A stretch of DNA of 64,000 bases from an uncultured Candidatus Saccharibacteria bacterium (lineage in GTDB: Bacteria; Patescibacteriota; Saccharimonadia; Saccharimonadales; CAYZZS01). Below, piece after piece: positions 5,640 to 51,129 of this stretch. The DNA is taken from assembly GCA_964620175.1 (NCBI GenBank), contig CAZUIL010000003.1:4281-68280 (forward strand). Direction: 5' to 3'. The position numbers were made by a program, and so were the translations under genes. Under the pieces are notes generated by a model, which did no database searches, was not told where the DNA came from, and saw only the letters and a program-made list of their open reading frames with translations. Within the stretch, counting starts at the first letter, position 1. Each line of letters begins with the position of its first letter.

Positions 5640-7370
5640 ATGAATACGGCAATTTCATTCATAAAACGCGCGAGGGCGAGCGGCTTGACTCTGACCTTCA
5701 TCGTGCTCGTGGTATGTTTGCTGACTGTTTTTCTGGCATGGCAGTCAGCACAAACAAGCTTGGAAGCGGCAATCGACGGCAGGTTGGCAACGCGGGTGCG
5801 GACCGTAGAGGCAGCTGTCCAAAAGCGGTTGGCGGTGTATGAGGCAATTCTGCTCAGTGGCAAATCGCTATACCAAGCGAACGAAAACTCTCTGTCACGG
5901 CAGCAATGGAAAAATTTCGTTGACACGCTCGACATCCGCGGCCAGCATCCCGGATTACAGGGGGTGGGGTACGCACTGGTCATAGCGCCCGGCGAATTGG
6001 CAGTCCATGAACAGCGGGTAAGAAACGAAGGCTTCCCTGGTTATTCGGTGCATCCGGCTGGCCCGAGGGACAGCTATACCTCTATCGTTTATCTTGAGCC
6101 CTTCGATAAGCGTAACCAACGGGCGTTCGGGTATGATATGTTTACCGAACCGATTCGCCGGGCAGCGATGGAAGCGGCCCGCGACTCGGGTGAAATAGCC
6201 ATTTCGCACACAGTAGAGCTAGTGCAGGAAACTGATACGGACATACAAGCGGGCTTTCTTATCTATGTTCCGGTATACGCCGTGCCGAACCCGGCATCGC
6301 CTGAAGAACGCCGCGCGTTGCTGGAGGGCTATATTTATGCACCTATCCGTGTCAGCGATCTTTTTGAAGGCCTTATCGGCAATGAGGTGCCAGATGGAAC
6401 ACATGTGGCTGTCTATGACGGGGCATCAACCAATGCGAAGTTGATATACGAATCAGACGGCCGCCAAAATCACGCAAGAAGCGTAACCCAGGAAATCCGC
6501 TTAGAGAATGTCGAGTGGACAATTGTAGTAAGTGCTAACGCCACCAGTTTGCAACTGCCGGACACGACGCAGCCTCAAAGGGTTATTTTCGGTGGATTGA
6601 TCGCGACTTTCCTGCTAGTCAGTTTTATCCAGTACGTCATACGTACCCGCGCGAAAGAATTAGAATTCAGCCGTCAAACAGAAATACAGCAAGCAAAGGA
6701 TGATTTACTCTCGCTGGCATCGCACCAGTTACGCACGCCTGCCACTGGCGTGAAACAATACATCAGCATGGTGCTGCAGGGCTACGCAGGGCGAATTACC
6801 AAACAGCAGCGGGCAATGCTGCAAAAGGCGTTTGTCAGCAACGAACGGCAAATTGAAATCATCAACCAAATCCTCCATGTCGCACGGTTGGAGACGGGCC
6901 GGATAAAACTCAGCAAGTCCAAGGAAAATATCGTCGCAATGGTCCAGGAACTCATCGATGAACAGGCCAGCGAGTTTGCAGCCAGGGAGCAGCAGGTAAC
7001 GTACAAGCCCCAGAAGAAGCGGCTGTACGCGCGGGTTGATAGCCAGTATATGCGGATGGCCATTGAAAACCTTTTAACCAATGCCAGTAAGTACACGCAT
7101 CCAGGCGGTAAAATTACAATTACCGTAAAGGAGGTTGACAATAAGATGGAAGTGAAAGTCAGCGATACCGGCGTGGGCATATCCGGCCAGGATCTGCCAA
7201 AGCTGTATGAAAAGTTTTCACGGATCGACAACGAGCTTTCAATGCAGGTAGGCGGCAGTGGGATCGGGCTGTACTTAGCGAAGCAGGTGGTAGATATGCA
7301 CCGGGGGTCTATTGCTGTTGATTCGACCCCGAGCCGGGGCAGTACTTTCACCATAAAATTCCCAAAGTGA
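5640..7370 (+). CDS. sensor histidine kinase with extracytoplasmic CHASE domain
   Basis: TM - CHASE-like region (YLEPFDKRNQRAFGYDMFTEPIRRAAMEAARDSG) - TM - HisKA (SHQLRTPATG) - HATPase (DTGVGI..., GGSGIGLYLAK). Confidence 0.85.
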   Translation: MNTAISFIKRARASGLTLTFIVLVVCLLTVFLAWQSAQTSLEAAIDGRLATRVRTVEAAVQKRLAVYEAILLSGKSLYQANENSLSRQQWKNFVDTLDIRGQHPGLQGVGYALVIAPGELAVHEQRVRNEGFPGYSVHPAGPRDSYTSIVYLEPFDKRNQRAFGYDMFTEPIRRAAMEAARDSGEIAISHTVELVQETDTDIQAGFLIYVPVYAVPNPASPEERRALLEGYIYAPIRVSDLFEGLIGNEVPDGTHVAVYDGASTNAKLIYESDGRQNHARSVTQEIRLENVEWTIVVSANATSLQLPDTTQPQRVIFGGLIATFLLVSFIQYVIRTRAKELEFSRQTEIQQAKDDLLSLASHQLRTPATGVKQYISMVLQGYAGRITKQQRAMLQKAFVSNERQIEIINQILHVARLETGRIKLSKSKENIVAMVQELIDEQASEFAAREQQVTYKPQKKRLYARVDSQYMRMAIENLLTNASKYTHPGGKITITVKEVDNKMEVKVSDTGVGISGQDLPKLYEKFSRIDNELSMQVGGSGIGLYLAKQVVDMHRGSIAVDSTPSRGSTFTIKFPK

Positions 7371-7439
7371 ATGTGGAAAATCTCACAGTTAAGTGGCTCA
7401 AGCTTGTTAGAATGGAACAAGTAAATAATAGAGACGATT

Positions 7440-7847
7440 ATGGCAAGGGCAGGCAAACCGTTGATTCTAGTTGTAGAGGACGAAACGACGCTGAACGAAG
7501 CGTACCAGACCATCCTTACAAAAGAAGGTTACCAAGTCGCGACTGCTTACAACGGCGAAGAAGCGATCGAAAAGATACGTAAGGACACGCCGGACCTAAT
7601 TTTGCTGGATTTGCGCATGCCGAAGATGGATGGGATCGAGTTCTTGCGGTCGATCGACGCGGAGAAAAACTTGCCAAAAACCAAAATAATAATCTTCAGT
7701 AACTATGACGCACAAAAGGAAATTGATGAAGCTTACCGGCTGGGAGCCCAACGCTACATTCTTAAAGCCTGGGCGACGCCAAAAGAACTGGTGCACTTGG
7801 TAAAAGAGACACTAAGCAAGGCGAAACCGCGAGCCAAGTCTAAATAG
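7440..7847 (+). CDS. single-domain response regulator (receiver only)
   Basis: 135 aa, CheY-like (ILVVEDE..., DLILLDLRMPKMDG, ...SNYD...). Confidence 0.85.
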   Translation: MARAGKPLILVVEDETTLNEAYQTILTKEGYQVATAYNGEEAIEKIRKDTPDLILLDLRMPKMDGIEFLRSIDAEKNLPKTKIIIFSNYDAQKEIDEAYRLGAQRYILKAWATPKELVHLVKETLSKAKPRAKSK

Positions 7848-8581: not shown

Positions 8582-9859
8582 ATGATAAGATGTTGTATAG
8601 GAAGCTTTATGGAGAGGCGCAGAGACGAACATCTTGCATTGGGGCAGCTACCCGCAGTAACTGACGCTTCGGTCCCACTTGAAGTTCGCCTGGACAAGTT
8701 TCGTTATGCGCTCGAGCAGTATCCTAAGGAAATATTTGGGCCGGACGAACGGCTGCATTCCTTTGCCGAGGCGCTTGTTCGAAAATTGGACCATCCGGAG
8801 GTAAGGCGCGAATTCGGAAACGTATTTCATCTCCGTACCATAACTGCTCAGGACATTTCCATTCCTGTAATGGCCAATCTCACGTTTCGCGCGGTCCAGA
8901 AGCAACTCTTGCGACAACGTGAGGAGCTCAATTACCCTGAGGCCTTTCAGGACCGAGCAACATGGGAGAAGGCACTAAGGCCGCTATTGCAGCACGCGCG
9001 CTTGCAGCCTCAGTCGCAAAGCATTTACCCGGACTTATTGTGGAGGAGGGTGCAAAGCAACCTCGCTGTCCGTTACTTCACCCATAAAATACTTGCCCAT
9101 TTGTATAGGGATCTCGTTGGAGAAAATCCTACCATGCTCGACGTAGGCAGCGCGCAAAACCAAGGTGCCAAACAGCTTGCGTTAAACTTACCGTTCCAGC
9201 CGGTTTCGGTGGGAACGGCACTGGACTACTCCAATGGCCGCTCGCACCCATCAGTCGTCCACGACCATTCCCTCAGCGAGACATTGAACGGGCTGGCGAA
9301 TACCCCGATACAGTGGGGTGAAATTTACGGTGCTGACATATTCGAGGCTGAAGATCGGGAAAACCAGGAATGGGCTAAAAGCTGCTCATTTACGCCGTCG
9401 GAGCTTTTGGACCGGCGAAAGGAAGCCCAGTACGACAAGCGCAACAATGCGCGACCGGAGAACGTCAAATCCGTACGGTGGGACTTTGGAGCGCGAGAAC
9501 TTCCCGACATTTTTATTGACAGGCCGCCAGAAAAAGATAAAAACAAATTTGGCATTGGTTCGCTTACGACAGTGATTTACCAGGAGGGGGAAAACAGGCG
9601 ACGACGCAAAATTGTCCGGCTTCTCTCTAACTATGCGAAGGTACTGGTGGTACAGGATTTTGTCCGGCCTACGGGCAGCCGGTTCGGGTTTAGCGTGGCA
9701 GACGCGCTTCATGAGCGTCCGTTTGGCTACCGGATATACGTCCGTGACATTAGGCATAAGGAGGATGGATTTCAAGAGTTCGGCCGCTGGAACAATGGCC
9801 GGTGTACCGAACTATTGCTCGGCAAACTAGCCCTTGATCGTCTGGCGGAGTTTGCGTAG
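8582..9859 (+). CDS. hypothetical protein (425 aa), possibly a degenerate class-I methyltransferase fold
   Basis: Long ORF with coding-like composition. Weak SAM-motif-I resemblance (TMLDVGSAQNQG). An alternative start at ATG 8609 has an AGGAAG Shine-Dalgarno. Confidence 0.6.
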   Translation: MIRCCIGSFMERRRDEHLALGQLPAVTDASVPLEVRLDKFRYALEQYPKEIFGPDERLHSFAEALVRKLDHPEVRREFGNVFHLRTITAQDISIPVMANLTFRAVQKQLLRQREELNYPEAFQDRATWEKALRPLLQHARLQPQSQSIYPDLLWRRVQSNLAVRYFTHKILAHLYRDLVGENPTMLDVGSAQNQGAKQLALNLPFQPVSVGTALDYSNGRSHPSVVHDHSLSETLNGLANTPIQWGEIYGADIFEAEDRENQEWAKSCSFTPSELLDRRKEAQYDKRNNARPENVKSVRWDFGARELPDIFIDRPPEKDKNKFGIGSLTTVIYQEGENRRRRKIVRLLSNYAKVLVVQDFVRPTGSRFGFSVADALHERPFGYRIYVRDIRHKEDGFQEFGRWNNGRCTELLLGKLALDRLAEFA

Positions 9860-10447: not shown

Positions 10448-10517
10448 AGTTACAGAATTATACCATTAAACCAGAGGTGCTAAGTGAGACTGAAGCAAAA
10501 GTTCAGCTGTAAGTACG

Positions 10518-10793
10518 ATGCCGTATAATCAAAGGATGGCAAAAGCAAGAAAAGCAGCCAAGAAGTTTGCAGTTTCCATCGTGGGCTTTCCTTTGCTCGC
10601 GTTCGGACTTGTACTGATCCCGTTGCCAGGGCCGGGACTGCTTCTCTGCTTCTTGTCGCTTTTTATTTTATCGCTGGAATTCGAGTGGGCCAGCAAACAC
10701 GTTGAGCGCGCCAAGGCACAACTACACAAGATCTACCAGGAAGCCAAAGCCCGCGGCGATAGGATTAGAGAAAAGGCAGAGACTAAAGACTGA
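10518..10793 (+). CDS. PGPGW-domain small membrane protein
   Basis: Two TM segments with LIPLPGPGLLL. Alternative start at 10536 (MAKARK...). Confidence 0.6.
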   Translation: MPYNQRMAKARKAAKKFAVSIVGFPLLAFGLVLIPLPGPGLLLCFLSLFILSLEFEWASKHVERAKAQLHKIYQEAKARGDRIREKAETKD

Positions 10794-10980
10794 GTAGTTC
10801 TAGCGCCCGGTGCATGACGAATGCCGGCCAGACAGCGGCTTTTAAGATGGCCAGCAAAAACCCGCCGAAACCTTCGGAATTCTGTACGAAGTAAACCAGT
10901 GCTCCAATGAACGATAGAAAATACATGCCCCCGAAACCGCCTTTTTCAACGATCTTTACTTTGCTGTCCCCTTTTGCCAT
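10783..10980 (-). CDS. small membrane protein (65 aa)
   Basis: Start moved to ATG 10980, which has an AAGGAG Shine-Dalgarno. MAKGDSKVKIVEKGGFGGMYFLSFIGALVYF...; two TM segments. Confidence 0.5.
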   Translation of the reverse strand: MAKGDSKVKIVEKGGFGGMYFLSFIGALVYFVQNSEGFGGFLLAILKAAVWPAFVMHRALELLSL

Positions 10981-11099
10981 GGTGTTCTCCTTATAACGCT
11001 TATGGTTATAGTATATAGCAACTGTTACGCAGGCTTGTAACATGGTGCCAATGTCATGGAAATTTTGTCGGCGGCTTTTTTCGCGGGTACAATGGTGTA

Positions 11100-29318: not shown

Positions 29319-30323
29319 ATGAACTATCAGAATCCTCGTATTGCTGAAATTGCGGGCACCCTAAAGAAGCGCCTGGCTCAGCAGGAAAACAAAGCCTCAG
29401 TGCTGCGGGCTGAAGAGCTTCGCTCTCTGTACGCCGAAATTCCCACGTTGCCAGCTGATGAGCGGGCAGCGTTCGGAAGAGAGCTGAACCAGCTGAAAGC
29501 TGAACTCGAGGCACTGGTAGCTGGTTCGGCAGAAGCAGACGAAGTACTGGCTCCGATTGACGTGACCGCGCCGTTCGACAGCAATACGGACCAGGCCAAA
29601 CGGCCGACGCTGCTGACTGCCGACAAGGGGAGCAAACATCCGCTGATGGCGGAAATAGAGAAGGTGCTCGACATATTTGCACGGATGGGCTTTGAAGCGG
29701 TGGAATCACGGCAGCTGGATGACGACTATCACATGTTCGGGTCGCTTAATTTTCCAGAAGGCCACCCAGCGCGCGATGACTACGATACCTTTATGACAGA
29801 GGAGGGCCTTATCCCGCCTGCTCACACCAGCACCATGCAGAACCGGGTGCTGCGGCAACAAAAAGGCAAGCTCGCTGTTGGCCAGCCGATTAGTGTTGTC
29901 ATCCCCGGCCGGGTCTTTAGGAACGAAGATCTGGATGCTACGCATGAGCACACGTTCTATCAACTCGAAGGCATCTATGTTGATAAGGGAATCCACGCCG
30001 GCCATCTGGTAGCGACGCTGAAGACGTTTCTGGAAGAATATTTTGGTGAGCAATTGGAGGTCAAGACCCAGCCGTTCTATTTCCCGTTTACCGAGCCAAG
30101 CTTCGAGTTTGCGATTAAGCGTCCGGGCCGGGACTGGCTTGAGTTGCTCGGTTGCGGCATGATCCATCCGAGCGTTTTGGCCGAAGGCGGTATCAATCCG
30201 AACGAATATACCGGCTTTGCCTGGGGCTTTGGTATCGACCGCCTGGTGCTTATGAAATACGGCATTGAAGACATCCGGCACTTCGAGTCCGGCAAACTAG
30301 CATTTCTGAGGCAATTCGCATGA
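29319..30323 (+). CDS. pheS: phenylalanine--tRNA ligase alpha subunit
   Basis: Class II motifs (FPEGHPARD, RVFRNEDLDATHEHTFYQLEG, GFAWGFGIDRL). Confidence 0.95.
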   Translation: MNYQNPRIAEIAGTLKKRLAQQENKASVLRAEELRSLYAEIPTLPADERAAFGRELNQLKAELEALVAGSAEADEVLAPIDVTAPFDSNTDQAKRPTLLTADKGSKHPLMAEIEKVLDIFARMGFEAVESRQLDDDYHMFGSLNFPEGHPARDDYDTFMTEEGLIPPAHTSTMQNRVLRQQKGKLAVGQPISVVIPGRVFRNEDLDATHEHTFYQLEGIYVDKGIHAGHLVATLKTFLEEYFGEQLEVKTQPFYFPFTEPSFEFAIKRPGRDWLELLGCGMIHPSVLAEGGINPNEYTGFAWGFGIDRLVLMKYGIEDIRHFESGKLAFLRQFA

Positions 30324-30724
30324 ACAGAGAGAGGCGTCCCGCTGAAGTTATTGATTTGCCCGTACGCGCGGCTGGGGAAAAGGATGCCGTCGCAATGCCT
30401 ATGGGCGAGGTTAGCGAGGATGCTGTTGTTATGAGCTCGTTTAGTAGCCGCCGGTTCCAGCAGCGTCTCGGAGAAGCCTTTAAGTCTGAAATGAGCCGCA
30501 AGCTTGGCCGTAGTGATGCTGAGAAGTTTGGCAAGCCTGAGTTTGATTCAAAAGCCTACAGTGCGGGCTTGGTGGGCCTGCAGGTTACCGTCGGTATGGA
30601 AGTGGCAACTGAAATGTTTGGTTCGCTTGATAACGCACGTAACTATTTGAACACGGTGCCGTGGCACCGTTCACAAAGTCGGGCTAACCATCCGTCGAAT
30701 TCGGGGGGCAAGCATGAAAGTTAG
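30320..30724 (+). CDS. hypothetical protein (134 aa) inserted between pheS and pheT
   Basis: ATGA overlap with the pheS stop; its end overlaps the pheT start by 11 nt. The ORF fills the whole 390-nt gap. Codon usage resembles the neighbours by eye. Confidence 0.55.
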   Translation: MNRERRPAEVIDLPVRAAGEKDAVAMPMGEVSEDAVVMSSFSSRRFQQRLGEAFKSEMSRKLGRSDAEKFGKPEFDSKAYSAGLVGLQVTVGMEVATEMFGSLDNARNYLNTVPWHRSQSRANHPSNSGGKHES

Positions 30725-33230
30725 CCTGAACTGGATTAAGGAATTTACTGACGTTCGCCTGCCGGTACAAACGCTGGTAGAAAAGATTGGCGGGCAGCTT
30801 GGGGCGGTGGAGGAGGTGATTGAGCTTGGCAAAAAGTATGAAGGCGTCATCGTGGCCAAAGTGGTGTCCTGCCAAAAGCATCCTAACGCGGACAAGCTGA
30901 GCATATGCCTGATTGATGACGGAGGAAAGGCTGAGGCGGTTACCAGAGACGATAGCGGTTACGTACAAGTAGTATGCGGTGCCCCGAATGTACGGGAAAC
31001 GCTATATGTAGCGTGGATACCCCCAGGTGTAGTGGTGCCGAACACGTTTGATAAGGCCCCGTTTACCCTTGAAGCGAAGGAAATACGCGGTATCGTCAGT
31101 AATGGCATGATTGCCAGTGCCCACGAATTAGCGCTAAGCGACGACCATACCGGTATCGTCGAACTCGAGGCTGACAACGCGCAGCCGGGCAAGCCACTGG
31201 CGGAGCTGCTGCAGCTTGATGATTTTATCATTGATATCGAAAATAAGATGTTTACCCGCCGGCCCGATTGTTTCGGGCAGCTCGGTGTTGCCCGGGAAAT
31301 TGCCGGCATTACCAACCAGGCATTTACATCGCCGGCTTGGTATTTGGATAAGCCGGTGTTCAAAAATGCTGGCAGGGCGCATTTGGCGGTTAATAATGCG
31401 CTGCCGGAGCAAGTGCCTCGGTTTGCCGCTGTCATCCTGGATGGTGTGAAAGTGGGGCCGAGTCCGCTCTGGCTGCAGAGTTACCTTGTCAGGGTAGGGA
31501 TACGGCCGGTAAACAACGTAGTTGATATTACGAATTACCTAATGATGCTGACCGGCCAGCCGCTCCATGCATACGACGCTGATAAGCTTCGGACGCTTAG
31601 CTCGTCTGAGGAGTACATCAGCCTTGAAACGCGCTTGTCAAAGCCGGGCGATACGCTGACGTTGCTTGGCGGCAAGGTGGTGACCTTCCGTGACGACAAG
31701 TCCATACTCATTACCTCGAATGACACACCGGTAGGTATCGGCGGTGTTATGGGTGGTGCGGCAACAGAAGTTGACGACTCTACCACAAGTGTCGTGCTGG
31801 AGTGCGCCACGTTCGATATGTACAGTATCCGGCGGACTAGCATGCAGTACGGGCTGTTCACCGAAGCGGTTACCAGGTTTACGAAAAACCAGTCGCCAAT
31901 GCAAAACGCCAAAATCGTCGCGAAAGCTATCGGCCTGTTCAACGAATTGGCTGGTGCCGAGCAGGCCAGCACAGTAATTGACAGCGCGCACAACCTGCCG
32001 GCACCGCCGACTATCCGTACGACTGCCGCCTTCATTAATGAGCGGCTCGGCCTTACGCTCGAATCGCACGAGATCGCCAGGCTATTGCAGAATGTAGAGT
32101 TTGGCGTACAGGTGGAAGCGGAAAGCCTGGTAATCATGCCGCCGTTTTGGCGCACGGATCTGCACATTCCCGAAGATATTGTTGAAGAGGTGGGTCGGCT
32201 GTACGGATACGATCATTTGCCGCAAGCGCTGCCGACACGGAGTCTGAAACCGGCTGTTAATAACGACCTGATCGCATTGAAGCAAAGAGTACGGGAAATC
32301 CTGAAAGAGGCTGGTGCCAATGAAGTGTTGACGTACAGTTTCGTACCCGCCAGCTTAATGGAAAAAACCGGCCAAAACCCTGCTAACGCCTATAAAATCA
32401 GCAACGCCCTCAGCCCTGGCCTGCAATATGTCCGCATGAGCTTACTGCCAAGTTTGCTTGAGAAAATCCACCCGAACGTAAAAGCAGGGGCCGGCGAATT
32501 TGCACTTTTTGAGATTAACCAGACACACGGCAAAGACTATATCAGCAAAGAAGACGGGCTGCCGATTGAGGAGCACCGCGTCGCGTTGGTGTTTGCGGCC
32601 GACGATAAAACCGCGGCTTCGAATTACGGAGGTGCCCCATACTTCCTGGTGCGGCGGTACGTAGACCATTTGCTAAACCGCCTCGGCATTGATCCAACCT
32701 ATGTGTCCGCCAAGGGCTATGTCCCGGAAATGGAGATCAGCAAAGCAGCAATCGCGCCGTTCAACCAAGATAGGGCAGCTTTGATAAAGGACCAGGACGG
32801 CCGGTTTATCGGCGAAATTGGCGAGTTTAAGGACAGTGTGCGGCGGGGACTGAAACTGCCGGCGTTTGTTGCAGGGTGCGAGCTTGACATCAAGCAGCTG
32901 CTTAAGCTTGCCGGCCAGGCGTCGCCGTACGTACCGCTGTCACGCTATCCTGGCGTAGAGCAAGATATTTGTCTGGCCGTTCCCCTGGACGCCGAGTACG
33001 CAGCAGTGTCGACGTTTGTGCGCGGGCAGCTGCAGCAGCAGTCCATGCCGACACGCACTTCTTTTACCTTAACTCCGATCGATATTTACCAAAAGGCCGA
33101 CCGCAAGCAAATAACGTTCCGGATCAATGTTGCTTCGCACGAACGCACACTCAGGACCGAAGAAGTAAGCAAACTGCTTGATACGGTTGCCCGCGCTGCA
33201 AAGTTGCAGCTCGGCGCCGAACGCATCTAA
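30714..33230 (+). CDS. pheT: phenylalanine--tRNA ligase beta subunit
   Basis: MKVSLNWIKEF... N-terminus, tRNA-binding, B3/4 and B5 regions, 838 aa. GGGGGG Shine-Dalgarno upstream. Confidence 0.95.
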   Translation: MKVSLNWIKEFTDVRLPVQTLVEKIGGQLGAVEEVIELGKKYEGVIVAKVVSCQKHPNADKLSICLIDDGGKAEAVTRDDSGYVQVVCGAPNVRETLYVAWIPPGVVVPNTFDKAPFTLEAKEIRGIVSNGMIASAHELALSDDHTGIVELEADNAQPGKPLAELLQLDDFIIDIENKMFTRRPDCFGQLGVAREIAGITNQAFTSPAWYLDKPVFKNAGRAHLAVNNALPEQVPRFAAVILDGVKVGPSPLWLQSYLVRVGIRPVNNVVDITNYLMMLTGQPLHAYDADKLRTLSSSEEYISLETRLSKPGDTLTLLGGKVVTFRDDKSILITSNDTPVGIGGVMGGAATEVDDSTTSVVLECATFDMYSIRRTSMQYGLFTEAVTRFTKNQSPMQNAKIVAKAIGLFNELAGAEQASTVIDSAHNLPAPPTIRTTAAFINERLGLTLESHEIARLLQNVEFGVQVEAESLVIMPPFWRTDLHIPEDIVEEVGRLYGYDHLPQALPTRSLKPAVNNDLIALKQRVREILKEAGANEVLTYSFVPASLMEKTGQNPANAYKISNALSPGLQYVRMSLLPSLLEKIHPNVKAGAGEFALFEINQTHGKDYISKEDGLPIEEHRVALVFAADDKTAASNYGGAPYFLVRRYVDHLLNRLGIDPTYVSAKGYVPEMEISKAAIAPFNQDRAALIKDQDGRFIGEIGEFKDSVRRGLKLPAFVAGCELDIKQLLKLAGQASPYVPLSRYPGVEQDICLAVPLDAEYAAVSTFVRGQLQQQSMPTRTSFTLTPIDIYQKADRKQITFRINVASHERTLRTEEVSKLLDTVARAAKLQLGAERI

Positions 33231-33233
33231 CGC

Positions 33234-33262
33234 TTGCAAATCACTCAATATGAGTATAGAAT
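33234..33262 (+). promoter_or_regulatory. sigma70-type promoter at the pheT 3' end, reading into the structured spacer
   Basis: TTGCAA (33234-33239), 17-nt spacer, TAGAAT (33257-33262). Confidence 0.45.
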
Positions 33263-33403
33263 AATGTTCGTTTGGTTGAGTCCCGGAGGATTCCCAAAAC
33301 GTACTTTGACAGGCGTGGTTACAGGGAATGCATAGGTAATGGCAGTGCTGTCCGGTTGCGTTTAGCGACCCGACACCACTGCTTTTATTCTTTGACATTC
33401 CCA

Positions 33404-33496
33404 GCACGTGTAGCTCAATTGGTTAGAGCCCCATAACATGCCTTGGCTCAAGTCCATGGCAGGTATGGGTGTATGGGTTCGAATCCCATCGCGTGC
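33404..33496 (+). tRNA. aberrant 93-nt tRNA-like gene with a 21-nt extension of the anticodon arm (apical loop CUCAAGU, CAA)
   Basis: Acceptor 33404-33410/33490-33496. D arm GCTC-AATTGGTTA-GAGC. T arm ATGGG-TTCGAAT-CCCAT. Anticodon stem 33431-33435/33464-33468 encloses 28 nt that stack into ~10 more pairs capped by a 7-nt loop. No CCA encoded. Confidence 0.6.
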
Positions 33497-33666
33497 GCTA
33501 TGAGAGCGAGCTCGGCATACAGCTTTGCAGCTCAGGAAGCTGGGGACTTCCTTCGGCGTTAGCCGGCTCTCACCTTCGCGCGAGTATCTACTCGCCATGC
33601 TCGGGTCCCGCGGGTACCTGCTTACTGTGCCCCTCGTAAGCTAGGTCCGCCCGCCCGCGGGACCCG
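33497..33666 (+). ncRNA. structured RNA element of unknown class immediately 3' of the tRNA-like gene
   Basis: Hand-found helices: 33501-33507/33566-33572; 33520-33525/33537-33542; 33580-33585/33590-33595; a 13-bp perfect GC-rich pair 33602-33614/33654-33666 with nested 33616-33625/33638-33648. No ORF. Confidence 0.35.
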
Positions 33667-33696
33667 TCTTCGCCATAAGCTACTCTGGAGTAAAAA

Positions 33697-33843
33697 ATGC
33701 CAGATGAAACGGACGAGCCCGTTACCCTGAAACAAGGACGGTGCATTAACAAGCATACGACCTATTTCGTACCATCAGCACCACCCGGGCAGAGGGTGCG
33801 CTGCTACAAATGTGACGAAGAGGTTACAGTCCCATTTTCATAG
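33697..33843 (+). CDS. possible 48-aa Cys/His small protein (zinc-ribbon-like; hand-found)
   Basis: GGAG 7 nt upstream of ATG. MPDETDEPVTLKQGRCINKHTTYFVPSAPPGQRVRCYKCDEEVTVPFS (C-x3-H ... C-x2-C). Confidence 0.35.
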   Translation: MPDETDEPVTLKQGRCINKHTTYFVPSAPPGQRVRCYKCDEEVTVPFS

Positions 33844-33849
33844 CAGAGC

Positions 33850-33916
33850 AAGACGGCAGTGAGCATGCGAAGGCTCAATTTGGGTTCATCCCAAATGCAC
33901 CACGCCTGTCCGTCTT
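33850..33916 (+). other. two-tier hairpin downstream of the small ORF
   Basis: AAGACGGCAG (33850-33859) pairs with CTGtCCGTCTT (33906-33916), one bulge. Inner stem 33878-33884/33890-33896. No U-tract follows. Confidence 0.4.
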
Positions 33917-33983
33917 CCCAAGCAAGCTTATCCAGCTTATTTAGGAAGGCGGCCCAACCACTATTTAAGCAAGTTACTTAGCG

Positions 33984-33992
33984 TGTTAAGCT
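33984..33992 (+). promoter_or_regulatory. extended -10 element TGtTAAGCT (leaderless geometry) upstream of the ABC exporter
   Basis: 7 nt upstream of ATG 34000. No Shine-Dalgarno. Confidence 0.35.
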
Positions 33993-33999
33993 TTAAGCA

Positions 34000-35772
34000 A
34001 TGAAGCACATTTGGCGGATTATCCGGTTTTCGGGAAGTTTGTGGCGGTACTACGCTGCAATTTCAATTTTTACGGTTTTGCTGAGCTTGATGAGCCTGCT
34101 CCAACCGCTGTTTACCGGTTGGGCGATTGATGAGATACGGCTTGGTACTGACGCTCATGTCGGCTATGTCGCGATGCTGGCAGTGGCGATTTTTGCGCTG
34201 GATCTAAGCGCAACAGTCTTCAGTAATATTAGCGGCTATTTAGGCGATCAAATGTCCGCCAAACTGAACAAACTATTGAGCCACCGGTATTTCGAACATT
34301 TATTGACGCTGCCCCAACGTTACTTCGATACTGAACTCTCCGGTACGATAATCAACCGTCTCAACCGTTCCATAACGCAAATCACCACGTTCATGCAAAT
34401 GATGAGCAACAACTTTTTGCAGTTCATTTTCAGTACGTTGTTTTCGCTCGTTGTCGTGGCGTTCATCAGTTGGCCGGTAGCGGCGATGCTGTTTGCCCTG
34501 TATCCGATTTACGTGTGGCTTACCTTCCGTACCAGCAACCGGTGGCAGAAATACCAGGAACAGAAAAACCGGCACTTGGATATTGCAACAGGACGGTTTG
34601 CTGAGGCAATTGGCCAGATAAAGGTCGTCAAAAGCTTTATCCAGGAGAGGCGTGAACTTGGCTTCTTTAACAGGCATATGGATGCGTACGCCGCGGTGAA
34701 CCGTCCCCAGTCCAGATTTTGGCACGTTCGCGACGTGCAACGGCGTTTAATCCTGAACGTCATCTTCCTGGGTGTTTTTATGTACGTGTTTGTGCAGGGG
34801 GCGCAAGGCATGCTTTCGCCGGGTGAAGCGGTAACGCTTATACTCTACGCGATGCAGATCCGTATCCCTATCTTTACCATCAGCTTTTTGGTTGAAAACA
34901 CCCAACGGGCAGTTACTGACAGCAAGGACTATTTTGAAATTATGAATATCAGGCCGCAGATAGAAGATGCAGCAGCAGCCAAGCCGCTGAAAGTAACCGC
35001 CGGCCAGGTGGTGTTTGATGACGTGACCTTTGGTTACGATAAGGGGCAGATGGTGCTAAAGGGTATGTCATTTGCGATCGAGCCTGATACCAAGGTCGCA
35101 CTGGTGGGGGAAAGCGGTGAGGGCAAGACGACGCTTACTAACTTGCTCATGCGCCTCTACGAGCCGCAGCGCGGAACAATCATGATTGACAGCCAGGACA
35201 TCCGGCTTGTCACACAAAAAAGCCTGCGCCAAAATATTGGCGTTGTATTCCAGGACCCTGCCCTGTTTAGCGGCACTATTAAGGAAAATATCGGCTATGC
35301 GAAGCCGGGGGCTGATGGCGAAGCGATTATAGCCGCCGCTAAGGCAGCCAATGCCCATGAGTTTATTACGAAGTTTGAGAAGGGATACGATACAGAAATT
35401 GGCGAGCGGGGCTTGAAACTGAGCGGCGGACAGAAACAGCGTATCGCGATTGCACGTGCCTTGCTCAAGGACGCGCCGATACTGATTTTGGACGAAGCGA
35501 CGAGCAGTTTGGATAGCCGCAGTGAAGCAATGGTGCAAGAGGCTTTGGAGCGGCTCATGAAAGGACGTACTACTATAATTATTGCCCATCGCTTGAGCAC
35601 CATCCAAAACGTTGACCAAATCATTACCATCGCCAATGGCAAGATTGGCGAGATGGGGACGCCGCGCAAGTTGGCAGCGAGCGGCGGTATTTACGCCCAG
35701 TTGCTGAAGTTGCAACAAGGGGGGTCAGAAGCAAACAAAAAGAAACTCAAGCAATTTGAAATTTCGGCATAA
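34000..35772 (+). CDS. ABC exporter, fused permease/ATPase (MsbA/type I exporter-like)
   Basis: Six N-terminal TM helices. Walker A GESGEGKTT, signature LSGGQKQR, Walker B ILILDEATS. Confidence 0.9.
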   Translation: MKHIWRIIRFSGSLWRYYAAISIFTVLLSLMSLLQPLFTGWAIDEIRLGTDAHVGYVAMLAVAIFALDLSATVFSNISGYLGDQMSAKLNKLLSHRYFEHLLTLPQRYFDTELSGTIINRLNRSITQITTFMQMMSNNFLQFIFSTLFSLVVVAFISWPVAAMLFALYPIYVWLTFRTSNRWQKYQEQKNRHLDIATGRFAEAIGQIKVVKSFIQERRELGFFNRHMDAYAAVNRPQSRFWHVRDVQRRLILNVIFLGVFMYVFVQGAQGMLSPGEAVTLILYAMQIRIPIFTISFLVENTQRAVTDSKDYFEIMNIRPQIEDAAAAKPLKVTAGQVVFDDVTFGYDKGQMVLKGMSFAIEPDTKVALVGESGEGKTTLTNLLMRLYEPQRGTIMIDSQDIRLVTQKSLRQNIGVVFQDPALFSGTIKENIGYAKPGADGEAIIAAAKAANAHEFITKFEKGYDTEIGERGLKLSGGQKQRIAIARALLKDAPILILDEATSSLDSRSEAMVQEALERLMKGRTTIIIAHRLSTIQNVDQIITIANGKIGEMGTPRKLAASGGIYAQLLKLQQGGSEANKKKLKQFEISA

Positions 35773-35799: not shown

Positions 35800-38646
35800 A
35801 TGGCGCGACCGAAATCCCGTAAGTCCAGCACAACAAACGGCCGATTGACCAAACTGCAACGTTTCGGGTTGTATTTTCACGACCGGGTATTTGTTACGTT
35901 ATTCCTATGGCTGGTACTCATTGCCATAGGGGTATTTTGTTACGCTAAGCTGTTAACCCGCGAGGGCTTTCCCCGTGTCGAATTGCCGGTCAGCGTAGTG
36001 AGCGGGACATATTTTGTAAACAGCGCTGAACAGGTAGACGCTGAAGTCACGAAGCCTCTGTCCGAATTCATTACGCAGCTGCCGGCCGTCGAAAGCGTCC
36101 ACGCCAGCAGCGGTACCAATTTTTTTACCCTCCAGGTTGAGCATACGGAGGGAACAGACTCCGGCGCGGCGAGCAATACCCTAAAAGAGCGGGTGGCGAA
36201 CGCCGGCTTCTTGCCTGAACGGGCAACGCTGGAGTTTCGGCCAGTACTTTTCGGGGTAGACTTTGCCGGCGAAGGCGATGACATACACATTTCGTTCTTT
36301 AGCCGCAGCGAAGTAAGCGCCGAAACATTAGAAGCCAAGGCGAAATCGGCAGCCGAATACCTGTCTGGCCCTTTCGGGATTGTGGGGGCAGAGCGGGTCA
36401 GGCCGGTAAGTTTGTTTCGCACCGGGAGTGATCCGGCGAGCGGGCAGCCGGTTTCCGAACAAAGCACGTTTGACAAAGTAGGGGTAAGCAACGGCGGCTT
36501 TGTGTTCTATGATTCGGCGATAGTCGCCGTAAAGGCTGAGGCGGGTATTGATGACCTCGAACTCTATGACGCTACGCAAATGGCGCTCGAGCGGCTTCGC
36601 AACGATGCCGCGTTTGAAGGGTATGACGCGGTAATATCAGCCAATTTCGCCGAAGGCATCCGGACACAAATTGCCGGTTTGCAGGAAAGTCTGTTAATTG
36701 GTTTGCTCGCGGTAACGACCGTCTGTTTTCTGCTGATTAGTCTCAGGGCCTCAATTGTTGCAGCTGTTGCAATGGTTTCAGTCATTACGATAACGTTGGG
36801 TATTGTCTATGCTGTTGGGCTGACGCTTAACACAGTAACGCTCTTTTCATTGGTACTCTCGCTTGGGCTGATCGTAGACGATACCATTATCGTTACTGAA
36901 GCGATAGATGCAGGGCGCAGTAAGCGCCTAAAGCGCCGTACCATAGTCGCCGGAGCAATTAAAAAAGTAGCGCTTGCAAGCGTGGCCGGAACATTCACGA
37001 CGATGCTTGCATTCGCTCCCATGTTGTTTATAGGGGGGATTCTAGGCACAATCATTGTAGCGATACCAGTCACGGTTATTATCAGCCTGGCCGTATCACT
37101 ACTCGTTTCGCTAACACTCGTACCATTCCTCTCGCGACTTCTTGTCAACCGCACGGGCCGGAGTTTCAGCCCGCTAAGGGGCATCGAATCTTACATCAGC
37201 GCTCGGTTGGCCGGCGTGATTAGCATAGGCAAGCGTTCATTGAAAAGGCTGGCTGTGATTGGATCTGCGGCGATTCTGTTGAGCATTGCTATGGTGGTGG
37301 CCGGCGTGGTCTTGTTCCAGCATGTGAAGTTTAATATTTTTCCGGCAGCCAAAGATACCAATGCGCTTCAGTTGGCGCTGCGTTTTCCGCTGTCAACAGA
37401 TTTGCAGCGTGCAGAAGAACTGACGGGGGAGGTAGCCGGCAGGGCGGCTGAGGTACTGGGGCCCAACATCGAGCAGGCGACGCTGAGTGGTACAGGATCC
37501 GCAAGCGGCGTGCTCCTGAATATGGAGTTGATACCGTATGACGAGCGTGAGGTAACTTCACCGCAGCTTGTCAACCAATTGGAGACGGCATTTGCCCAGT
37601 ATGACAAGGCTGATGTGCAGGTGCGGCAAATCGATGTTGGGCCGCCGCCTGGTACGTTCGGCGTTCGGATTTATGCCGAGGACCGGGACCGCGCGCTCCA
37701 GCTGGCGCGGGACATCGCAGCGTTTTTGGCGGATCAAACGGTTACCCGCCCCACCGGTACGACTGCAAGGCTGGAGGACGTACAGGTGGCAAACGAAACC
37801 TCAATCCTCAGGAGCGACGGACGGAAATATGTCGAGGTACGGGCTGGATTTGATGCGAACGATACGTCGGCCTTGGTGACGCTAGCTCAGGATTTGGTAG
37901 AGGAGGAGTTCACACCGGACCGTATCGCCCAGTACGGATTGGACGAAGCAGCGCTGGCCTATGATTTCGGCAGTGAATCTGATAACCAGGAATCGTTTAA
38001 ATCTATGGTTATTGCATTTCCAATCCTATTGGCTGCCATGTATCTGCTACTGGCGTTTCAGTTCCGTAGCCTCTCCCAGCCGCTTATGATATTTCTAGCC
38101 ATACCGTTCAGCATATTCGGAGTTACCGGCGGCCTGCTTATAACCAATAACCCGTTCAGCTTTTTCACCTTAATCGGGGTGTTCGCGCTTATCGGCATTA
38201 GCGTCAATAACACGATACTGCTCACAGACTATGCGAACCAGGCACGCCGGACCGGGAAGCGCCGCCTTGAGGCGATTGCCTCGGCGGTCCAAGAACGGTT
38301 CCGACCGTTACTGACTACCAGTTTGACGAGCGTTGTGGCACTCATTCCCTTGGCGTTGACCGATCCGTTTTGGGAAAGCCTAGCCGTAACGCTGATGTTT
38401 GGGCTACTTTCCAGCACGTTCTTGGTCGTCGTCGCGTTTCCGTATTATTACCTGGCGGTAGAGGTGCTGCGGCTACGCTTTTCAAGGCTTGCGGTTATCA
38501 CTTGGATACTGCTGCTTGGCGGCGGCACCCTAGCATTATCTAAGTTCGCGCAGACTGAGGTCGTCATAGTCTGGGCCATGGTATGGCTGCTTTACCCCAT
38601 CATGCGGAGCATTACCTCTAAGATCACCCAGCGCTTGGTATACTAA
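35800..38646 (+). CDS. RND-superfamily efflux transporter (AcrB-like, 948 aa)
   Basis: 12-TM architecture with two large extracytoplasmic loops. AcrB-like motifs (LSLGLIVDDTIIVTEAI, IGISVNNTILL). Confidence 0.8.
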   Translation: MARPKSRKSSTTNGRLTKLQRFGLYFHDRVFVTLFLWLVLIAIGVFCYAKLLTREGFPRVELPVSVVSGTYFVNSAEQVDAEVTKPLSEFITQLPAVESVHASSGTNFFTLQVEHTEGTDSGAASNTLKERVANAGFLPERATLEFRPVLFGVDFAGEGDDIHISFFSRSEVSAETLEAKAKSAAEYLSGPFGIVGAERVRPVSLFRTGSDPASGQPVSEQSTFDKVGVSNGGFVFYDSAIVAVKAEAGIDDLELYDATQMALERLRNDAAFEGYDAVISANFAEGIRTQIAGLQESLLIGLLAVTTVCFLLISLRASIVAAVAMVSVITITLGIVYAVGLTLNTVTLFSLVLSLGLIVDDTIIVTEAIDAGRSKRLKRRTIVAGAIKKVALASVAGTFTTMLAFAPMLFIGGILGTIIVAIPVTVIISLAVSLLVSLTLVPFLSRLLVNRTGRSFSPLRGIESYISARLAGVISIGKRSLKRLAVIGSAAILLSIAMVVAGVVLFQHVKFNIFPAAKDTNALQLALRFPLSTDLQRAEELTGEVAGRAAEVLGPNIEQATLSGTGSASGVLLNMELIPYDEREVTSPQLVNQLETAFAQYDKADVQVRQIDVGPPPGTFGVRIYAEDRDRALQLARDIAAFLADQTVTRPTGTTARLEDVQVANETSILRSDGRKYVEVRAGFDANDTSALVTLAQDLVEEEFTPDRIAQYGLDEAALAYDFGSESDNQESFKSMVIAFPILLAAMYLLLAFQFRSLSQPLMIFLAIPFSIFGVTGGLLITNNPFSFFTLIGVFALIGISVNNTILLTDYANQARRTGKRRLEAIASAVQERFRPLLTTSLTSVVALIPLALTDPFWESLAVTLMFGLLSSTFLVVVAFPYYYLAVEVLRLRFSRLAVITWILLLGGGTLALSKFAQTEVVIVWAMVWLLYPIMRSITSKITQRLVY

Positions 38647-49869: not shown

Positions 49870-51129
49870 ATGTGCCGTATGTTATCCGAACTATTGGGGG
49901 CTAGTGAGCCAGTGTTCAGCGTAGCGTTGCGGCACCTGGAACAACAGACCGGACGCCACGCGGTTGATATCCGGTTGAGCTCAGACATTAACTCCAGGGT
50001 GCGGCTAAAGGTCGGACAGCTGTTGCCGTATAACACCAATCCGACACCGCTCGAAGTGTACGCTGCACTGCTGCATAAAGTTGGTGAGCACGATAAGACA
50101 CTGGTCAGGGCCTTGGGTGGGGCGGATCCATTAGATGCGGATGATGTGCTGCGCCGGGTTGTCAAGGCCGCGCAATCGGCAGGCATCAAGAAGGAATGCT
50201 GGGCGCTCAAGACAAACGCCGCGAAGCAGCTGCTGCGCAAGCAGCCTCCTAAGCGGACCATGAAACTCTTAGGCTATAAGTCACTGGATTCGATGCTGAA
50301 GCGCGAACAGTTAAGCCGGCTGTTCGCAGCGGTCAGGCTGGCAGAGAGCCCGAAATGGCTGGCAACTTTTGAAGGCCAGTACGAGGCGCTACAACCTTCT
50401 GATTTTGAAACGAGGGAAATAGAAATCGTGGCCGCAAATGACAAAAAGTGGCAGAGAATCGGCGAGCTGTTTGTAGCGATGAACCGCCACAGCCTTATTG
50501 TCGTCAAGGAGCTCGGAACAATTGTTGTATTGCCTCTCCCTGTAAAGCGAATGCAGGGAGTAGCCATCACCTTGCTACCGCAAATCATCCACCACATCGA
50601 TGAGTTAAGGACGTACGCGACGTATCTCAAGCTACGGCAAACAAGGCCGGACTTCGGCAGAAGCCTTGGGCGAGCGCTGTTCCAGCGGGAGTTGCCTGGC
50701 GCGCACATAGCTGACCACGACATCGAATGGCCGGTGTTGCACCGCTATTTTGCCGCCAATGGACGTTGTCCTGGCGTGCTGGAGCCGCACATTCAGCCCG
50801 AAGACCTGTCGTGGCGGCATGCCGGTCGGGTGCTGGCTGATTGGGTTCCTGACTGCATGTTCTGGCATGACCTTGATTACGTCGGCATGGCCGATGGAAG
50901 GGGCGGTGTCATCTCGTTTAACCTGGCTGATGCGGCCATTAATTATTGCAATAAGCTGCCTATGAACCGCCAGGCCAATTACCATATGCGCGATGCACTC
51001 TGGAATGAAATCCTCACGCGTTACGTTGGGTTGGAGTATGTCGAGCGCCAAGTGCTGGACCAGCTGAACAGCGGCGCCGGCTTTTTGGAAGGTGCCGCCC
51101 ATGGACCGTTGGTAATGGAGATCGCGTAA
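49870..51129 (+). CDS. hypothetical protein (419 aa)
   Basis: Long ORF with coding-like composition. TAATG coupling to the downstream LOG-like gene. No family recognised. Confidence 0.6.
   Translation: MCRMLSELLGASEPVFSVALRHLEQQTGRHAVDIRLSSDINSRVRLKVGQLLPYNTNPTPLEVYAALLHKVGEHDKTLVRALGGADPLDADDVLRRVVKAAQSAGIKKECWALKTNAAKQLLRKQPPKRTMKLLGYKSLDSMLKREQLSRLFAAVRLAESPKWLATFEGQYEALQPSDFETREIEIVAANDKKWQRIGELFVAMNRHSLIVVKELGTIVVLPLPVKRMQGVAITLLPQIIHHIDELRTYATYLKLRQTRPDFGRSLGRALFQRELPGAHIADHDIEWPVLHRYFAANGRCPGVLEPHIQPEDLSWRHAGRVLADWVPDCMFWHDLDYVGMADGRGGVISFNLADAAINYCNKLPMNRQANYHMRDALWNEILTRYVGLEYVERQVLDQLNSGAGFLEGAAHGPLVMEIA

Follow-up and report, generated by a model that had tools for sequence, protein, structure and literature searches.

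Evidence for a conserved structured RNA with an embedded tRNA-like module between pheT and an ABC exporter gene in Saccharimonadales

YrlA is a non-coding RNA of about 110 nt that carries a permuted tRNA-like domain and a Ro-binding stem, and in tmRNA the 5' and 3' ends of the molecule itself form the tRNA-like domain, the tag frame having neither a Shine-Dalgarno site nor a start codon. In eukaryotes, MALAT1 mascRNA is a tRNA-like fold within a longer transcript, with leader-trailer pairing next to the acceptor stem (PMC8457004) and proven cleavage by RNase P and RNase Z. The large ornate RNAs GOLLD and ROOL often adjoin tRNAs (PMC5737381). In rRNA (rrn) operons a boxB hairpin is followed by boxA and, beyond that, by a leader-trailer helix that covaries (PMC10250234). 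The boxA of E. coli rrn operons reads UGCUCUUUA(ACAA) (PMC2724277), and gamma-proteobacteria share the consensus GYTCTTTAANA (PMC5725501). Long untranslated RNAs of other kinds, CRISPR arrays among them, are also shielded from Rho by boxA (PMC7665894). The rrn leader/trailer frame, the embedded tRNA-like modules of YrlA and mascRNA and the large ornate RNAs are the closest functional analogies for the element described here, which occupies the spacer at positions 33231-33999 of a 64,000-nucleotide stretch of DNA (the window) from a member of the Saccharimonadales (TM7, candidate phyla radiation, CPR). The spacer lies between pheT and a pair of genes for an ABC exporter and an RND protein, and is predicted to be a transcription unit separate from both.

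The spacer has the anatomy of a transcription unit, is conserved, covaries and lacks a coding signal. That it belongs to a real family of conserved, covarying structured RNAs is very probable. For the element as a whole we lean, by a little, towards a stable structured RNA of ~680 nt with an rrn-like frame, in which a non-decoding tRNA module would serve as a structural or processing element. The parts of the predicted RNA, in window coordinates, are as follows.

33234-33262, + strand: sigma-70-type promoter (TTGCAA, 17-nt spacer, TAGAAT), also present upstream of P1 in relatives
33271-33298, + strand: P1, a 5' hairpin in a boxB-like position (UUUGG, UU bulge, GAGUCC, loop CGGA, GGAUUC, CCAAA)
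33301-33312, + strand: conserved, single-stranded motif GUACUUUGACAG, family consensus GYACNUUGACAG, rrn boxA-like
33308-33319, + strand: 5' strand GACAGGCGUGGU of the closing (leader-trailer) helix, partner 33899-33910
33324-33402, + strand: P3, a long hairpin with the conserved core GGCAGUG...CACUGCU at 33341-33383
33404-33497, + strand: tRNA-like module with a 7-bp acceptor stem, D arm, T arm with GUUCGAAUC and discriminator G
33435-33464, + strand: abnormal anticodon region, ~30 nt where 7 are expected, with an imperfect extension of ~11 bp and the loop CUCAAGU
33501-33572, + strand: P6, a 72-nt four-way junction with a 7-bp closing stem UGAGAGC/GCUCUCA (folding z = -2.9)
33573-33595, + strand: motif CCUUCGCG, then hairpin P7 (GCGAGUA/UACUCGC)
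33602-33666, + strand: P8, a perfect 13-bp G+C-rich helix CGGGUCCCGCGGG/CCCGCGGGACCCG around an inner hairpin
33687-33843, + strand: Shine-Dalgarno site GGAG (33687-33690) and a 48-codon Cys-rich open reading frame (ORF; 33697-33843), C-x5-H...C-x2-C, zinc-ribbon-like
33850-33860, + strand: segment X, AAGACGGCAGU, seven nt past the ORF stop, able to pair with 33905-33916
33899-33910, + strand: 3' strand ACCACGCCUGUC of the closing helix, from covariation and minimum free energy (MFE)
33910-33952, + strand: terminal two-tier hairpin CCGUCUUCC/GGAAGGCGG around AAGCU/AGCUU, lacking a U-tract in the window copy

The promoter, called near-consensus in a first-pass annotation of the same DNA, was present as described, and in the homologous elements an equivalent -35 box and an (often extended) -10 box lie at the same distance upstream of P1. 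The transcript would probably start near 33269-33271, and the leader hairpin GAGUCC-CGGA-GGAUUC of that annotation was found at 33278-33293. The 683-nt RNA (33270-33952) has an MFE of -296.8 kcal/mol, whereas its dinucleotide shuffles reach -231.9 +/- 6.4 (z = -10.2), and the unconstrained MFE structure reproduced the helices derived by comparison. The tRNA-like piece folded alone gave z = -3.1. The closing helix of the window has 12 bp and encloses ~600 nt, and it starts in the 3' part of the motif GUACUUUGACAG. The hairpin at 33910-33952 is the probable 3' end or terminator of the RNA. The first-pass annotation had drawn a two-tier hairpin at 33850-33916 instead; this overlaps the 3' strand of the covarying long-range helix (33899-33910) and stays possible as an alternative pairing, the true terminal two-tier hairpin being the one at 33910-33952. 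Its observation that the hairpins of the spacer lack a U-tract held for every one of them. It did not include the long-range closing helix or the motif resembling the boxA of rRNA leaders, nor did it set a conserved frame apart from a variable cargo.

Searches with the spacer by blastn and nhmmer gave faint matches only, and the homology of the element is visible only through the motif together with the long-range helix. The order pheT then ABC gene is kept in many loci with three kinds of gap, namely 0-61 bp, a protein gene, or an ORF-poor stretch of 660-1350 bp, and the shared architecture was recognised on reading these ORF-poor gaps. A conserved ACUUUGACAGGnnnn, ~40 nt into the transcript, is complementary to a stretch just before the final hairpin. 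The inner part of this closing helix differs in every locus and stays complementary, as in L064 (GACAGAUAUGAUGAU/AUCAUCAUAUCUGUC), L060 (AACAGGCGUGGUAC/GUACCACGCCUGUU) and L049 (GACAGGUAUGAAAAUA/UAUUUUCAUACCUGUC). In total ~23 elements were collected, from the window and from the related loci L004 (two), L005, L017, L020, L028, L029, L032, L036, L037, L039, L049, L054, L060, L064, L067 (two), L088, L095, L099, L113 and L116. L088, L095, L099, L113 and L116 were added by a scan of 80 ABC-anchored metagenome loci, the second copy of L004 (L004b) and the L029 copy by a profile of the 5' frame, and L032 by a generic search for long-range helices. The best relatives of the window PheT are from metagenome-assembled genomes of Saccharimonadales (50-57% identity), and the element-bearing loci have PheT proteins no closer to it than this range. 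Two contigs carry a Saccharimonadales-type PheT under other names, L016 (DATKKU010000029.1, 'Candidatus Binatia') and L069 (CAJCIR010000002.1, 'Chlamydiae'), with full-length identities of 54% and 50%, and these are probably mis-binned.

The elements range from about 0.3 to 1.1 kb and in nearly all loci lie directly upstream of an orthologue of the ABC exporter gene, the L088 element being 700 nt away from it. In 19 of 20 cases the G+C content of the element was above that of its locus. What is conserved is the frame, consisting of the promoter, P1, the motif, the closing helix, P3 and the terminal hairpin, while the interior is heterogeneous, its cargo being of three kinds: tRNA-like units with expanded, deleted or mutated anticodon arms, G+C-rich four-way junctions and optional small ORFs with strong Shine-Dalgarno sites. 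The ACAG of the motif was invariant in the first 20 elements found, with variant forms in L004b, L029 and L032. In the relatives, too, the terminal two-tier hairpin comes immediately after the closing helix; it has a U-tract in L005, L032, L054 and L095.

Some individual elements are of interest in their own right. Tandem elements occur in L067 (8253-8956 and 8913-9631, identical in L084) and in L004 (6514-7313 and about 7318-7700), each with its own promoter, closing helix and terminal hairpin, and the cargo differs between the copies. L004b is a minimal form of ~330 nt that holds little apart from a 39-aa ORF, in which the motif CxxCxGxG occurs twice, and its Shine-Dalgarno site. The L029 copy lies on the minus strand at about 300-1160, ~3 kb upstream of a pheT on the other strand and thus in a different genomic context; it has the closing helix GAGAGUAGUA/UACUACUCUC and as cargo an 83-aa ORF with a transmembrane segment, and lacks a tRNA-like unit. 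The largest element, L095 1700-2990 (1146 nt between the helix ends), has a 17-bp closing helix, two tRNA-like units, a charged helical ORF of 58 aa and a U-tract at its terminal hairpin.

Covariation was examined helix by helix. In the closing helix (20 elements) 85.3% of cells were paired, compared to 65.6% in shuffles, and both sides had changed in 12 of 16 pairs. The covariation score was 0.583 compared to 0.195 when shuffled (0/500 shuffles reached 0.583) and slid controls gave at most 0.18. The ACAG/CUGU core covaries as well, being GACAAG/CUUGUC in L004b, GAGAG/CUCUC in L029 and AAGG/CCUU in L032. P1 (14 elements) was 93.6% paired, with four pairs changed on both sides and a conserved G.U pair, and in P3 (15 elements), the core of which is GGCAGU...ACUGUC with a near-constant span of about 43-49 nt, 9 of 10 pairs had changed on both sides and one G.U pair was conserved. 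P1 and P3 jointly were 93.5% paired with both-side changes in 13 of 19 pairs (0/500 shuffles), and the acceptor and T stems of eight tRNA-like units showed such changes in 11 of 12 pairs. All these percentages of paired cells are partly circular, owing to ascertainment and to hand-anchoring: the closing helix was required to find most elements, and P1, P3 and the tRNA arms were compared in hand-anchored alignments of fixed length, which were used because MAFFT, on whole elements or on the 5' domain, aligned the middle and the 5' strand of P3 poorly. This circularity does not extend to the variety of compensatory pairs, to the flanking promoter and hairpins, which are conserved, or to the fixed position of the element. 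The first-pass proposal of a large structured-RNA locus with an embedded tRNA-like module was thus supported by the ~23 homologous elements, by covarying helices and by the lack of protein similarity, and the comparison of homologous spacers that it recommended found the architecture to recur in ~23 loci with compensatory changes.

An inverted repeat of 12-17 bp bounding 0.3-1.1 kb might also be a feature of the DNA, and either a miniature transposable element with terminal inverted repeats or a decayed protein gene was considered. The patchy presence of the element, its tandem copies and the one copy elsewhere in a genome would suit the former. However, the inner part of the repeat stays complementary while its sequence varies, unlike repeats recognised by one transposase, and the promoter with P1 and the terminal hairpin are conserved outside the repeat and in fixed orientation. 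The conserved G.U pairs in P1 and P3 are possible only in the RNA of the + strand, there is no transposase, and no frame gave a protein match. Pfam searches with all spacer ORFs of at least 40 aa on both strands gave nothing beyond weak zinc-ribbon matches, and tblastn with the proteins found in the pheT-ABC gap of other lineages (alpha/beta-hydrolase-like and sugar-transferase-like) gave no match; a decayed protein gene, which the first-pass annotation had named as something to rule out, found no support in these or the other protein searches. A scan of IMG/VR for the frame pattern gave 32 matches, none with a closing helix, which is chance level and gives no link to phage. An origin at the level of DNA is therefore highly improbable. 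The best profile score among the viral-collection matches resembling P1 plus motif was a look-alike GGUUGAGACUCUUCAGAAGAGAUUCCGCC...GUACAUUGACAG on the minus strand of L169 (IMGVR_UViG_3300035522_000179, 249.6 kb), at 1518-1563 (nhmmer E = 0.008), with no closing helix in the 1.5 kb examined; this match could be chance or the contig could be CPR-derived.

The promoter-proximal order in the element, a hairpin, a boxA-like motif and a covarying leader-trailer helix around untranslated RNA, is of the rrn type. As in rrn leaders, a promoter and hairpin precede a CUUUGA/CUUUAA-type motif ~35-45 nt into the transcript, followed by a long-range helix (PMC10250234, PMC2724277, PMC5725501), and in the element this helix covaries while the motif stays fixed. 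The family motif GYACNUUGACAG agrees with the boxA consensus at 8-10 of 11 positions (GUACUUUGACA at 9/11, L054 at 10/11 and L032 at 8/11), although this consensus is gamma-proteobacterial and the host lineage's own boxA may differ. The element differs from an rrn leader in that its cargo is not rRNA, its helix is short (11-17 bp) and begins within the motif, where that of rrn operons begins about 18 nt past boxA, and its motif departs from GYTCTTTAANA at 1-3 positions. No rRNA gene was found in the window or in the related loci, and a TM7 16S probe was absent from the viral contigs. A reading of the conserved TTGACA as an internal -35 box was rejected, there being no -10 box at 16-18 nt in any element. 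We infer Nus-type antitermination because the order and the sequence of the frame resemble the boxB-boxA-leader/trailer arrangement of rRNA operons. The RNA of the boxA-like motif, GUACUUUGACAGG, is proposed to bind NusB/NusE; the frame would recruit Nus factors, and antitermination of the NusB/NusE type would carry polymerase through ~600 nt of mostly untranslated, hairpin-rich RNA, the pairing of the ends then stabilising or processing the product. The cargo so transcribed in the window would be a tRNA-derived module, a second cloverleaf-like four-way junction, G+C-rich helices and a putatively translated 48-codon zinc-ribbon ORF. An rRNA-style antitermination frame is a tentative proposal, to which we give somewhat less than even weight.

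The tRNA-like gene with an abnormal anticodon arm described in the first-pass annotation was recovered at 33404-33497 by ARAGORN, which called it tRNA-Met(CAT) of 95 nt, and by the Rfam tRNA model (RF00005) with 49.1 bits against a threshold of 29. It resembles a tRNA in its 7-bp acceptor stem, its D arm, its T arm with GUUCGAAUC and its discriminator base. Unlike a tRNA, the window unit has 28-30 nt in the anticodon arm as against a 7-nt loop (28 nt at the loop position in the Rfam alignment) and is embedded in a larger conserved fold. The anticodon arm begins with a 5-bp stem, followed by a 21-23-nt extension that forms ~11 imperfect base pairs. If CAU is read as positions 34-36 then position 33 is A and not U, and on direct reading the removal of any single block leaves no clean 7-nt anticodon loop. 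In 80 related loci ARAGORN reported hardly any tRNA downstream of pheT.

Given the ARAGORN call with an insertion and the Rfam score, the unit could be taken for a genuine tRNA-Met gene with a short intron, standing beside an unrelated spacer. The tRNA introns known from bacteria are of the self-splicing group I type and measure at least about 200 nt, and an insertion of 21-23 nt is too short to be one of them; to our knowledge bacteria lack the endonuclease that splices at bulge-helix-bulge motifs. No intron family matched the module in Rfam at E <= 10, and no 3-4-3 bulge-helix-bulge motif was seen on reading the spacer sequence. Together with the A at position 33 and the lack of a clean loop, the quite different insertions of the orthologous L005 unit, the different anticodon in every unit and the flanks of the unit, which belong to one conserved structure, leave this explanation extremely improbable.

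Comparison of eight tRNA-like units showed which parts are kept. The T loop GUUCRANUC is invariant. The L005 unit has the same T arm and a near-identical acceptor stem as the window unit, with insertions into the D loop (~85 nt) and the anticodon loop (~30 nt). The L095 unit has a 3-nt 'anticodon loop' and is accompanied by a second tRNA-like unit in the same element, and L067a keeps only a T-loop hairpin. L064 (6739-6809) has a canonical 71-nt cloverleaf scoring 64.8 bits in Rfam, with a normal loop and the anticodon AUC; A34 is unusual in bacteria outside tRNA-Arg. The units L049 8475-8554 and L060 6686-6754 have G3.U70 and discriminator A73, the alanine identity set used by tmRNA, whereas those of the window, L005 and L064 have A3-U70 plus G73. 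Neither the anticodon nor the acceptor identity is conserved among homologous units. The conserved part is the acceptor/T-arm minihelix and in several units also the D stem, the parts read by RNase P, RNase Z, the CCA-adding enzyme and T-loop enzymes. Since the anticodon region differs in every unit and the acceptor identities differ, the tRNA module is judged from its sequence not to be a decoding tRNA; most likely it would be a folded handle for RNase P, RNase Z, CCA-adding or T-loop enzymes, or a structural elbow.

On the 3' side of the module the interior contains further strong helices. P6 resembles a cloverleaf, and one of its hairpins has 6 bp and the 7-nt loop CUGGGGA. In L005, L049, L060, L064 and L067b a domain of ~70-130 nt, closed by a stem of differing sequence, likewise stands directly 3' of the tRNA-like unit. 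The motif CCUUCGCG follows the 3' strand of P6 in the window, L005 and L067b, with variants in L004 and L095. The perfect 13-bp G+C-rich pair of the first-pass annotation joins 33602-33614 with 33654-33666, forming P8, and on direct reading equivalent helices of 12-14 bp are present in L005 (CUCCUGCGUACC/GGUACGCAGGAG) and L028. The cloverleaf-like form of P6, the canonical cloverleaf of L064, the other units with their insertions, deletions and odd anticodons and the absence of the element from many orthologous loci would be in keeping with a decaying tRNA operon, in which relics of tRNA genes with their promoter and terminator drift without function. Such drift would not be expected to preserve helices by compensatory changes across lineages at 50% PheT identity, nor a strongly conserved frame with raised G+C and a folding z of -10. 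Where the element is absent the gap is only 0-60 bp, and compact genomes do not keep 0.5-1.1 kb of junk for long. A decaying operon is thus improbable.

The 48-codon ORF was present at 33697-33843 with GGAG six nt upstream, as in the first-pass annotation. It had weak zinc-ribbon Pfam matches only, and a search of 5.8 billion clustered proteins with a word-sharing prefilter gave no homologue. Seven elements contain ORFs with strong Shine-Dalgarno sites (up to AAGGAGGUGAU) inside the frame. The ORF stop lies 66-84 nt before the end of the closing helix in the window, L028, L060, L067a and L095, the ORFs of the latter four having Shine-Dalgarno sites of 7-11 nt and the same relative place as that of the window, and the small ORFs of L004b and L029 lie farther from the 3' end of the frame. 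A Cys-rich, zinc-ribbon-like sequence is encoded by four of these ORFs. In about two thirds of the elements there is no ORF of at least 25 aa that is preceded by a Shine-Dalgarno site.

These ORFs raise the possibility that the transcript serves chiefly to encode a small zinc-ribbon protein, with the structured RNA as no more than a long 5' UTR (untranslated region) that stabilises or regulates it and the tRNA-like piece as a processing signal. The strength of the Shine-Dalgarno sites, the Cys-rich character of four of the ORFs, and the two elements (L004b and L029) made of the frame and an ORF with almost no other cargo are points for this. However, most elements lack such an ORF, the ORFs are not homologous throughout (zinc-ribbon, charged-helical and transmembrane types occur), that of the window has no homologue among the clustered proteins passed by the prefilter, and the conserved, covarying parts are RNA helices rather than coding sequence. 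A mainly messenger role is therefore unlikely.

Segment X introduces a second way in which translation could matter. The window shares such a segment with L028, L060, L067a and L095, the segment ending 46-63 nt short of the closing strand's end. X is the outer tier of the hairpin noted at 33850-33916 and is accompanied by two small hairpins ahead of the 3' strand of the closing helix. Its partner, 33905-33916, is where the closing strand meets the terminal hairpin, and X therefore competes with both the closing helix and the terminal hairpin. This suggests that X might act as a translation-sensitive switch. The genes on which such a switch might act, and the other neighbours of the spacer, are these.

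29319-30323: pheS, left of the spacer
30714-33230: pheT, left of the spacer
33984-34002, + strand: extended -10-like box TGTTAAGCT, outside the RNA, 7 nt before the ABC start codon, which lacks a Shine-Dalgarno site; predicted leaderless-type promoter of the ABC-RND genes
34000-35772: ABC exporter (ABC_membrane and ABC_tran domains), right of the spacer
35800-38646: AcrB-like RND protein, right of the spacer

The element could then regulate the exporter genes in cis as a ribosome-sensing attenuator, with the choice between two structures set by whether the 48-codon ORF is translated. Free X would pair with 33905-33916 and block the terminal hairpin, giving read-through, and X covered by a terminating ribosome would allow the closing helix and the terminal hairpin to form. 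Leader-peptide control of drug exporters is known, for example in B. subtilis bmrB-bmrCD. The position directly upstream of the ABC orthologue in nearly all loci, the regular spacing of ORF stop and complementary segment in the ORF-bearing copies and the U-tracts of four relatives all point this way. Against this, about two thirds of the elements have no ORF with which to sense a ribosome, and the ABC gene has its own -10 box and no Shine-Dalgarno site, meaning that a read-through transcript would be poorly translated. Elements also occur in tandem (L004, L067), 700 nt from the ABC gene (L088) and in another context (L029). In the window alone the energy of the X duplex was not significant (z = -0.14, no better than shuffles), this copy has no U-tract, and ~430 nt of tRNA-like and G+C-rich structure would not be needed in a simple attenuator. 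We consider attenuation rather unlikely.

The leaderless-type promoter of the efflux operon in the first-pass annotation corresponds to the extended -10-like box 7 nt before the ABC start. The relatives likewise have a -10-like box 7-9 nt upstream of the ABC ATG, even at loci that lack the element. The box reads TAAGCT, TACAAT, TACACT or TATACT in the window, L005, L020, L028, L037, L049, L064, L095 and L113, and in the same nine loci the ABC exporter gene has no Shine-Dalgarno site. The ABC exporter mRNA thus looks like a conserved leaderless mRNA. Antisense pairing of the element with the 5' end of the ABC mRNA was considered and dropped, the 7-nt match of the window (33891-33897 with 34008-34014) not being seen in L049 when the two loci were compared by eye.

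Comparison with catalogued RNAs gave mostly negative results. At the gathering threshold Rfam 15 found only tRNA over the whole window, and in 13 related loci only the L064 tRNA. A cmscan of 33150-34050 with permissive filters at E <= 10 gave only tRNA, a weak match to YrlA and a match to mir-34 that is noise. No covariance model of GOLLD, ROOL, OLE, raiA, HEARO, 6S, RNase P, SRP, T-box or riboswitches matched the spacer at E <= 10, and no tmRNA was found by ARAGORN or Rfam. The Rfam scan recommended in the first-pass annotation therefore returned only tRNA above threshold and no large-RNA family, in agreement with its failure to see RNase P, SRP, tmRNA, T-box or riboswitch signatures; its suggestion of kinship to GOLLD or ROOL found no Rfam match even at E <= 10. 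A literature search turned up no large structured RNA or tRNA-like non-coding RNA described in Saccharibacteria or CPR, and only the small lysM-TM7 motif is listed for this lineage (Weinberg 2017). The family has so far been found only in Saccharimonadales and is apparently uncatalogued, there being no Rfam 15 model for it except that of generic tRNA.

Each of the described systems shares something with the element. Like YrlA it would be a non-coding RNA with a stem formed by its ends and a tRNA-like module. However, its tRNA has normal topology and lies inside a 0.45-1.1-kb RNA, and among the genes checked around the element (pheS, pheT, ABC, RND, NUDIX and FKBP) there was no rsr/Ro60. The YrlA match itself (RF02553, 21.9 bits, E = 0.058, gathering threshold 69) is due to the D-arm-like GUAGCUCAAUUGGUUAGAGC. 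Like tmRNA it has a tRNA-like domain and a short reading frame in one structured RNA, with G3.U70 and A73 in L049 and L060, but its tRNA module lies in the interior and its ORF opens with an ATG behind a strong Shine-Dalgarno site. With GOLLD, ROOL, OLE and raiA it shares the size of 0.45-1.1 kb, the many helices and a link to tRNA; it differs in having no match to them at E <= 10 and no phage context, in carrying the tRNA-like unit inside the fold and not beside it, and in the small ORFs of some copies. The resemblance to mascRNA extends in L049 to the pairing CUCCAG/CUGGAG that flanks the tRNA-like unit, although mascRNA cleavage is proven and the element is known here from sequence alone.

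Several observations about the rest of the window may be recorded. A 134-aa ORF without a Pfam match (30320-30724) lies between pheS and pheT and overlaps each by a few bases. The histidine kinase at 5640-7370 carries an extracellular sensor domain of the CHASE type (E = 6e-63), which is uncommon for a reduced CPR genome. Two ORFs of 419 and 425 aa, at 49870-51129 and 8582-9859, have no Pfam family at E <= 0.001. The spacer had been described as by far the longest ORF-free stretch of the window, which did not hold: when ORFs of at least 100 aa were counted, the gap at 10448-11099 (652 bp) was longer. This gap nevertheless holds two plausible small membrane-protein genes, convergent ORFs of 91 aa (+ strand, 10518-10793) and 86 aa (- strand, 10783-11043).

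A number of points weigh against the reading of the element as a stable RNA with an rrn-like frame and a non-decoding tRNA module, besides the partial circularity of the percent-paired values. The element is missing from most orthologous pheT/ABC loci and, given this absence, is not essential. The central cargo aligns poorly and is heterogeneous, with L004b and L029 carrying little beyond an ORF, and thus the idea of one RNA family with a single function may oversimplify. There is no close relative of the window copy with which the extension of its anticodon arm could be compared for covariation. The match to boxA is imperfect, positions 3 and 8 usually deviating and position 5 being variable, and part of the motif is later base-paired. 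Finally, the transcription of the element, the ends of the RNA and its stability are all predictions.

Since the tiny genomes of CPR bacteria have almost no spare DNA and yet keep this unit of 0.5-1.1 kb by compensatory evolution in deeply separated lineages, the element is very likely to be functional. It is conceivable, although on balance we doubt it, that the family constitutes an undescribed class of large (0.45-1.1 kb) ornate RNA of Saccharibacteria, transcribed in the style of rRNA and with a core of exapted tRNA folds, namely one recognisable tRNA-like domain with a freely varying anticodon arm and further cloverleaf-like junctions. If so, some members would double as mRNAs for micro-proteins, and the RNA could act as a new ribonucleoprotein, or as an RNA interacting with the ribosome or with tRNA enzymes, in minimal genomes rather than a relic or a simple leader. 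The size and folding of the RNA make it a reasonable candidate for cryo-electron microscopy. The family would then be an addition to the short list of large bacterial RNAs without an assigned function, it would demonstrate the reuse of tRNA folds as modules in larger RNAs, and it would extend boxA/leader-trailer, 'rRNA-style' transcription to a new kind of cargo.

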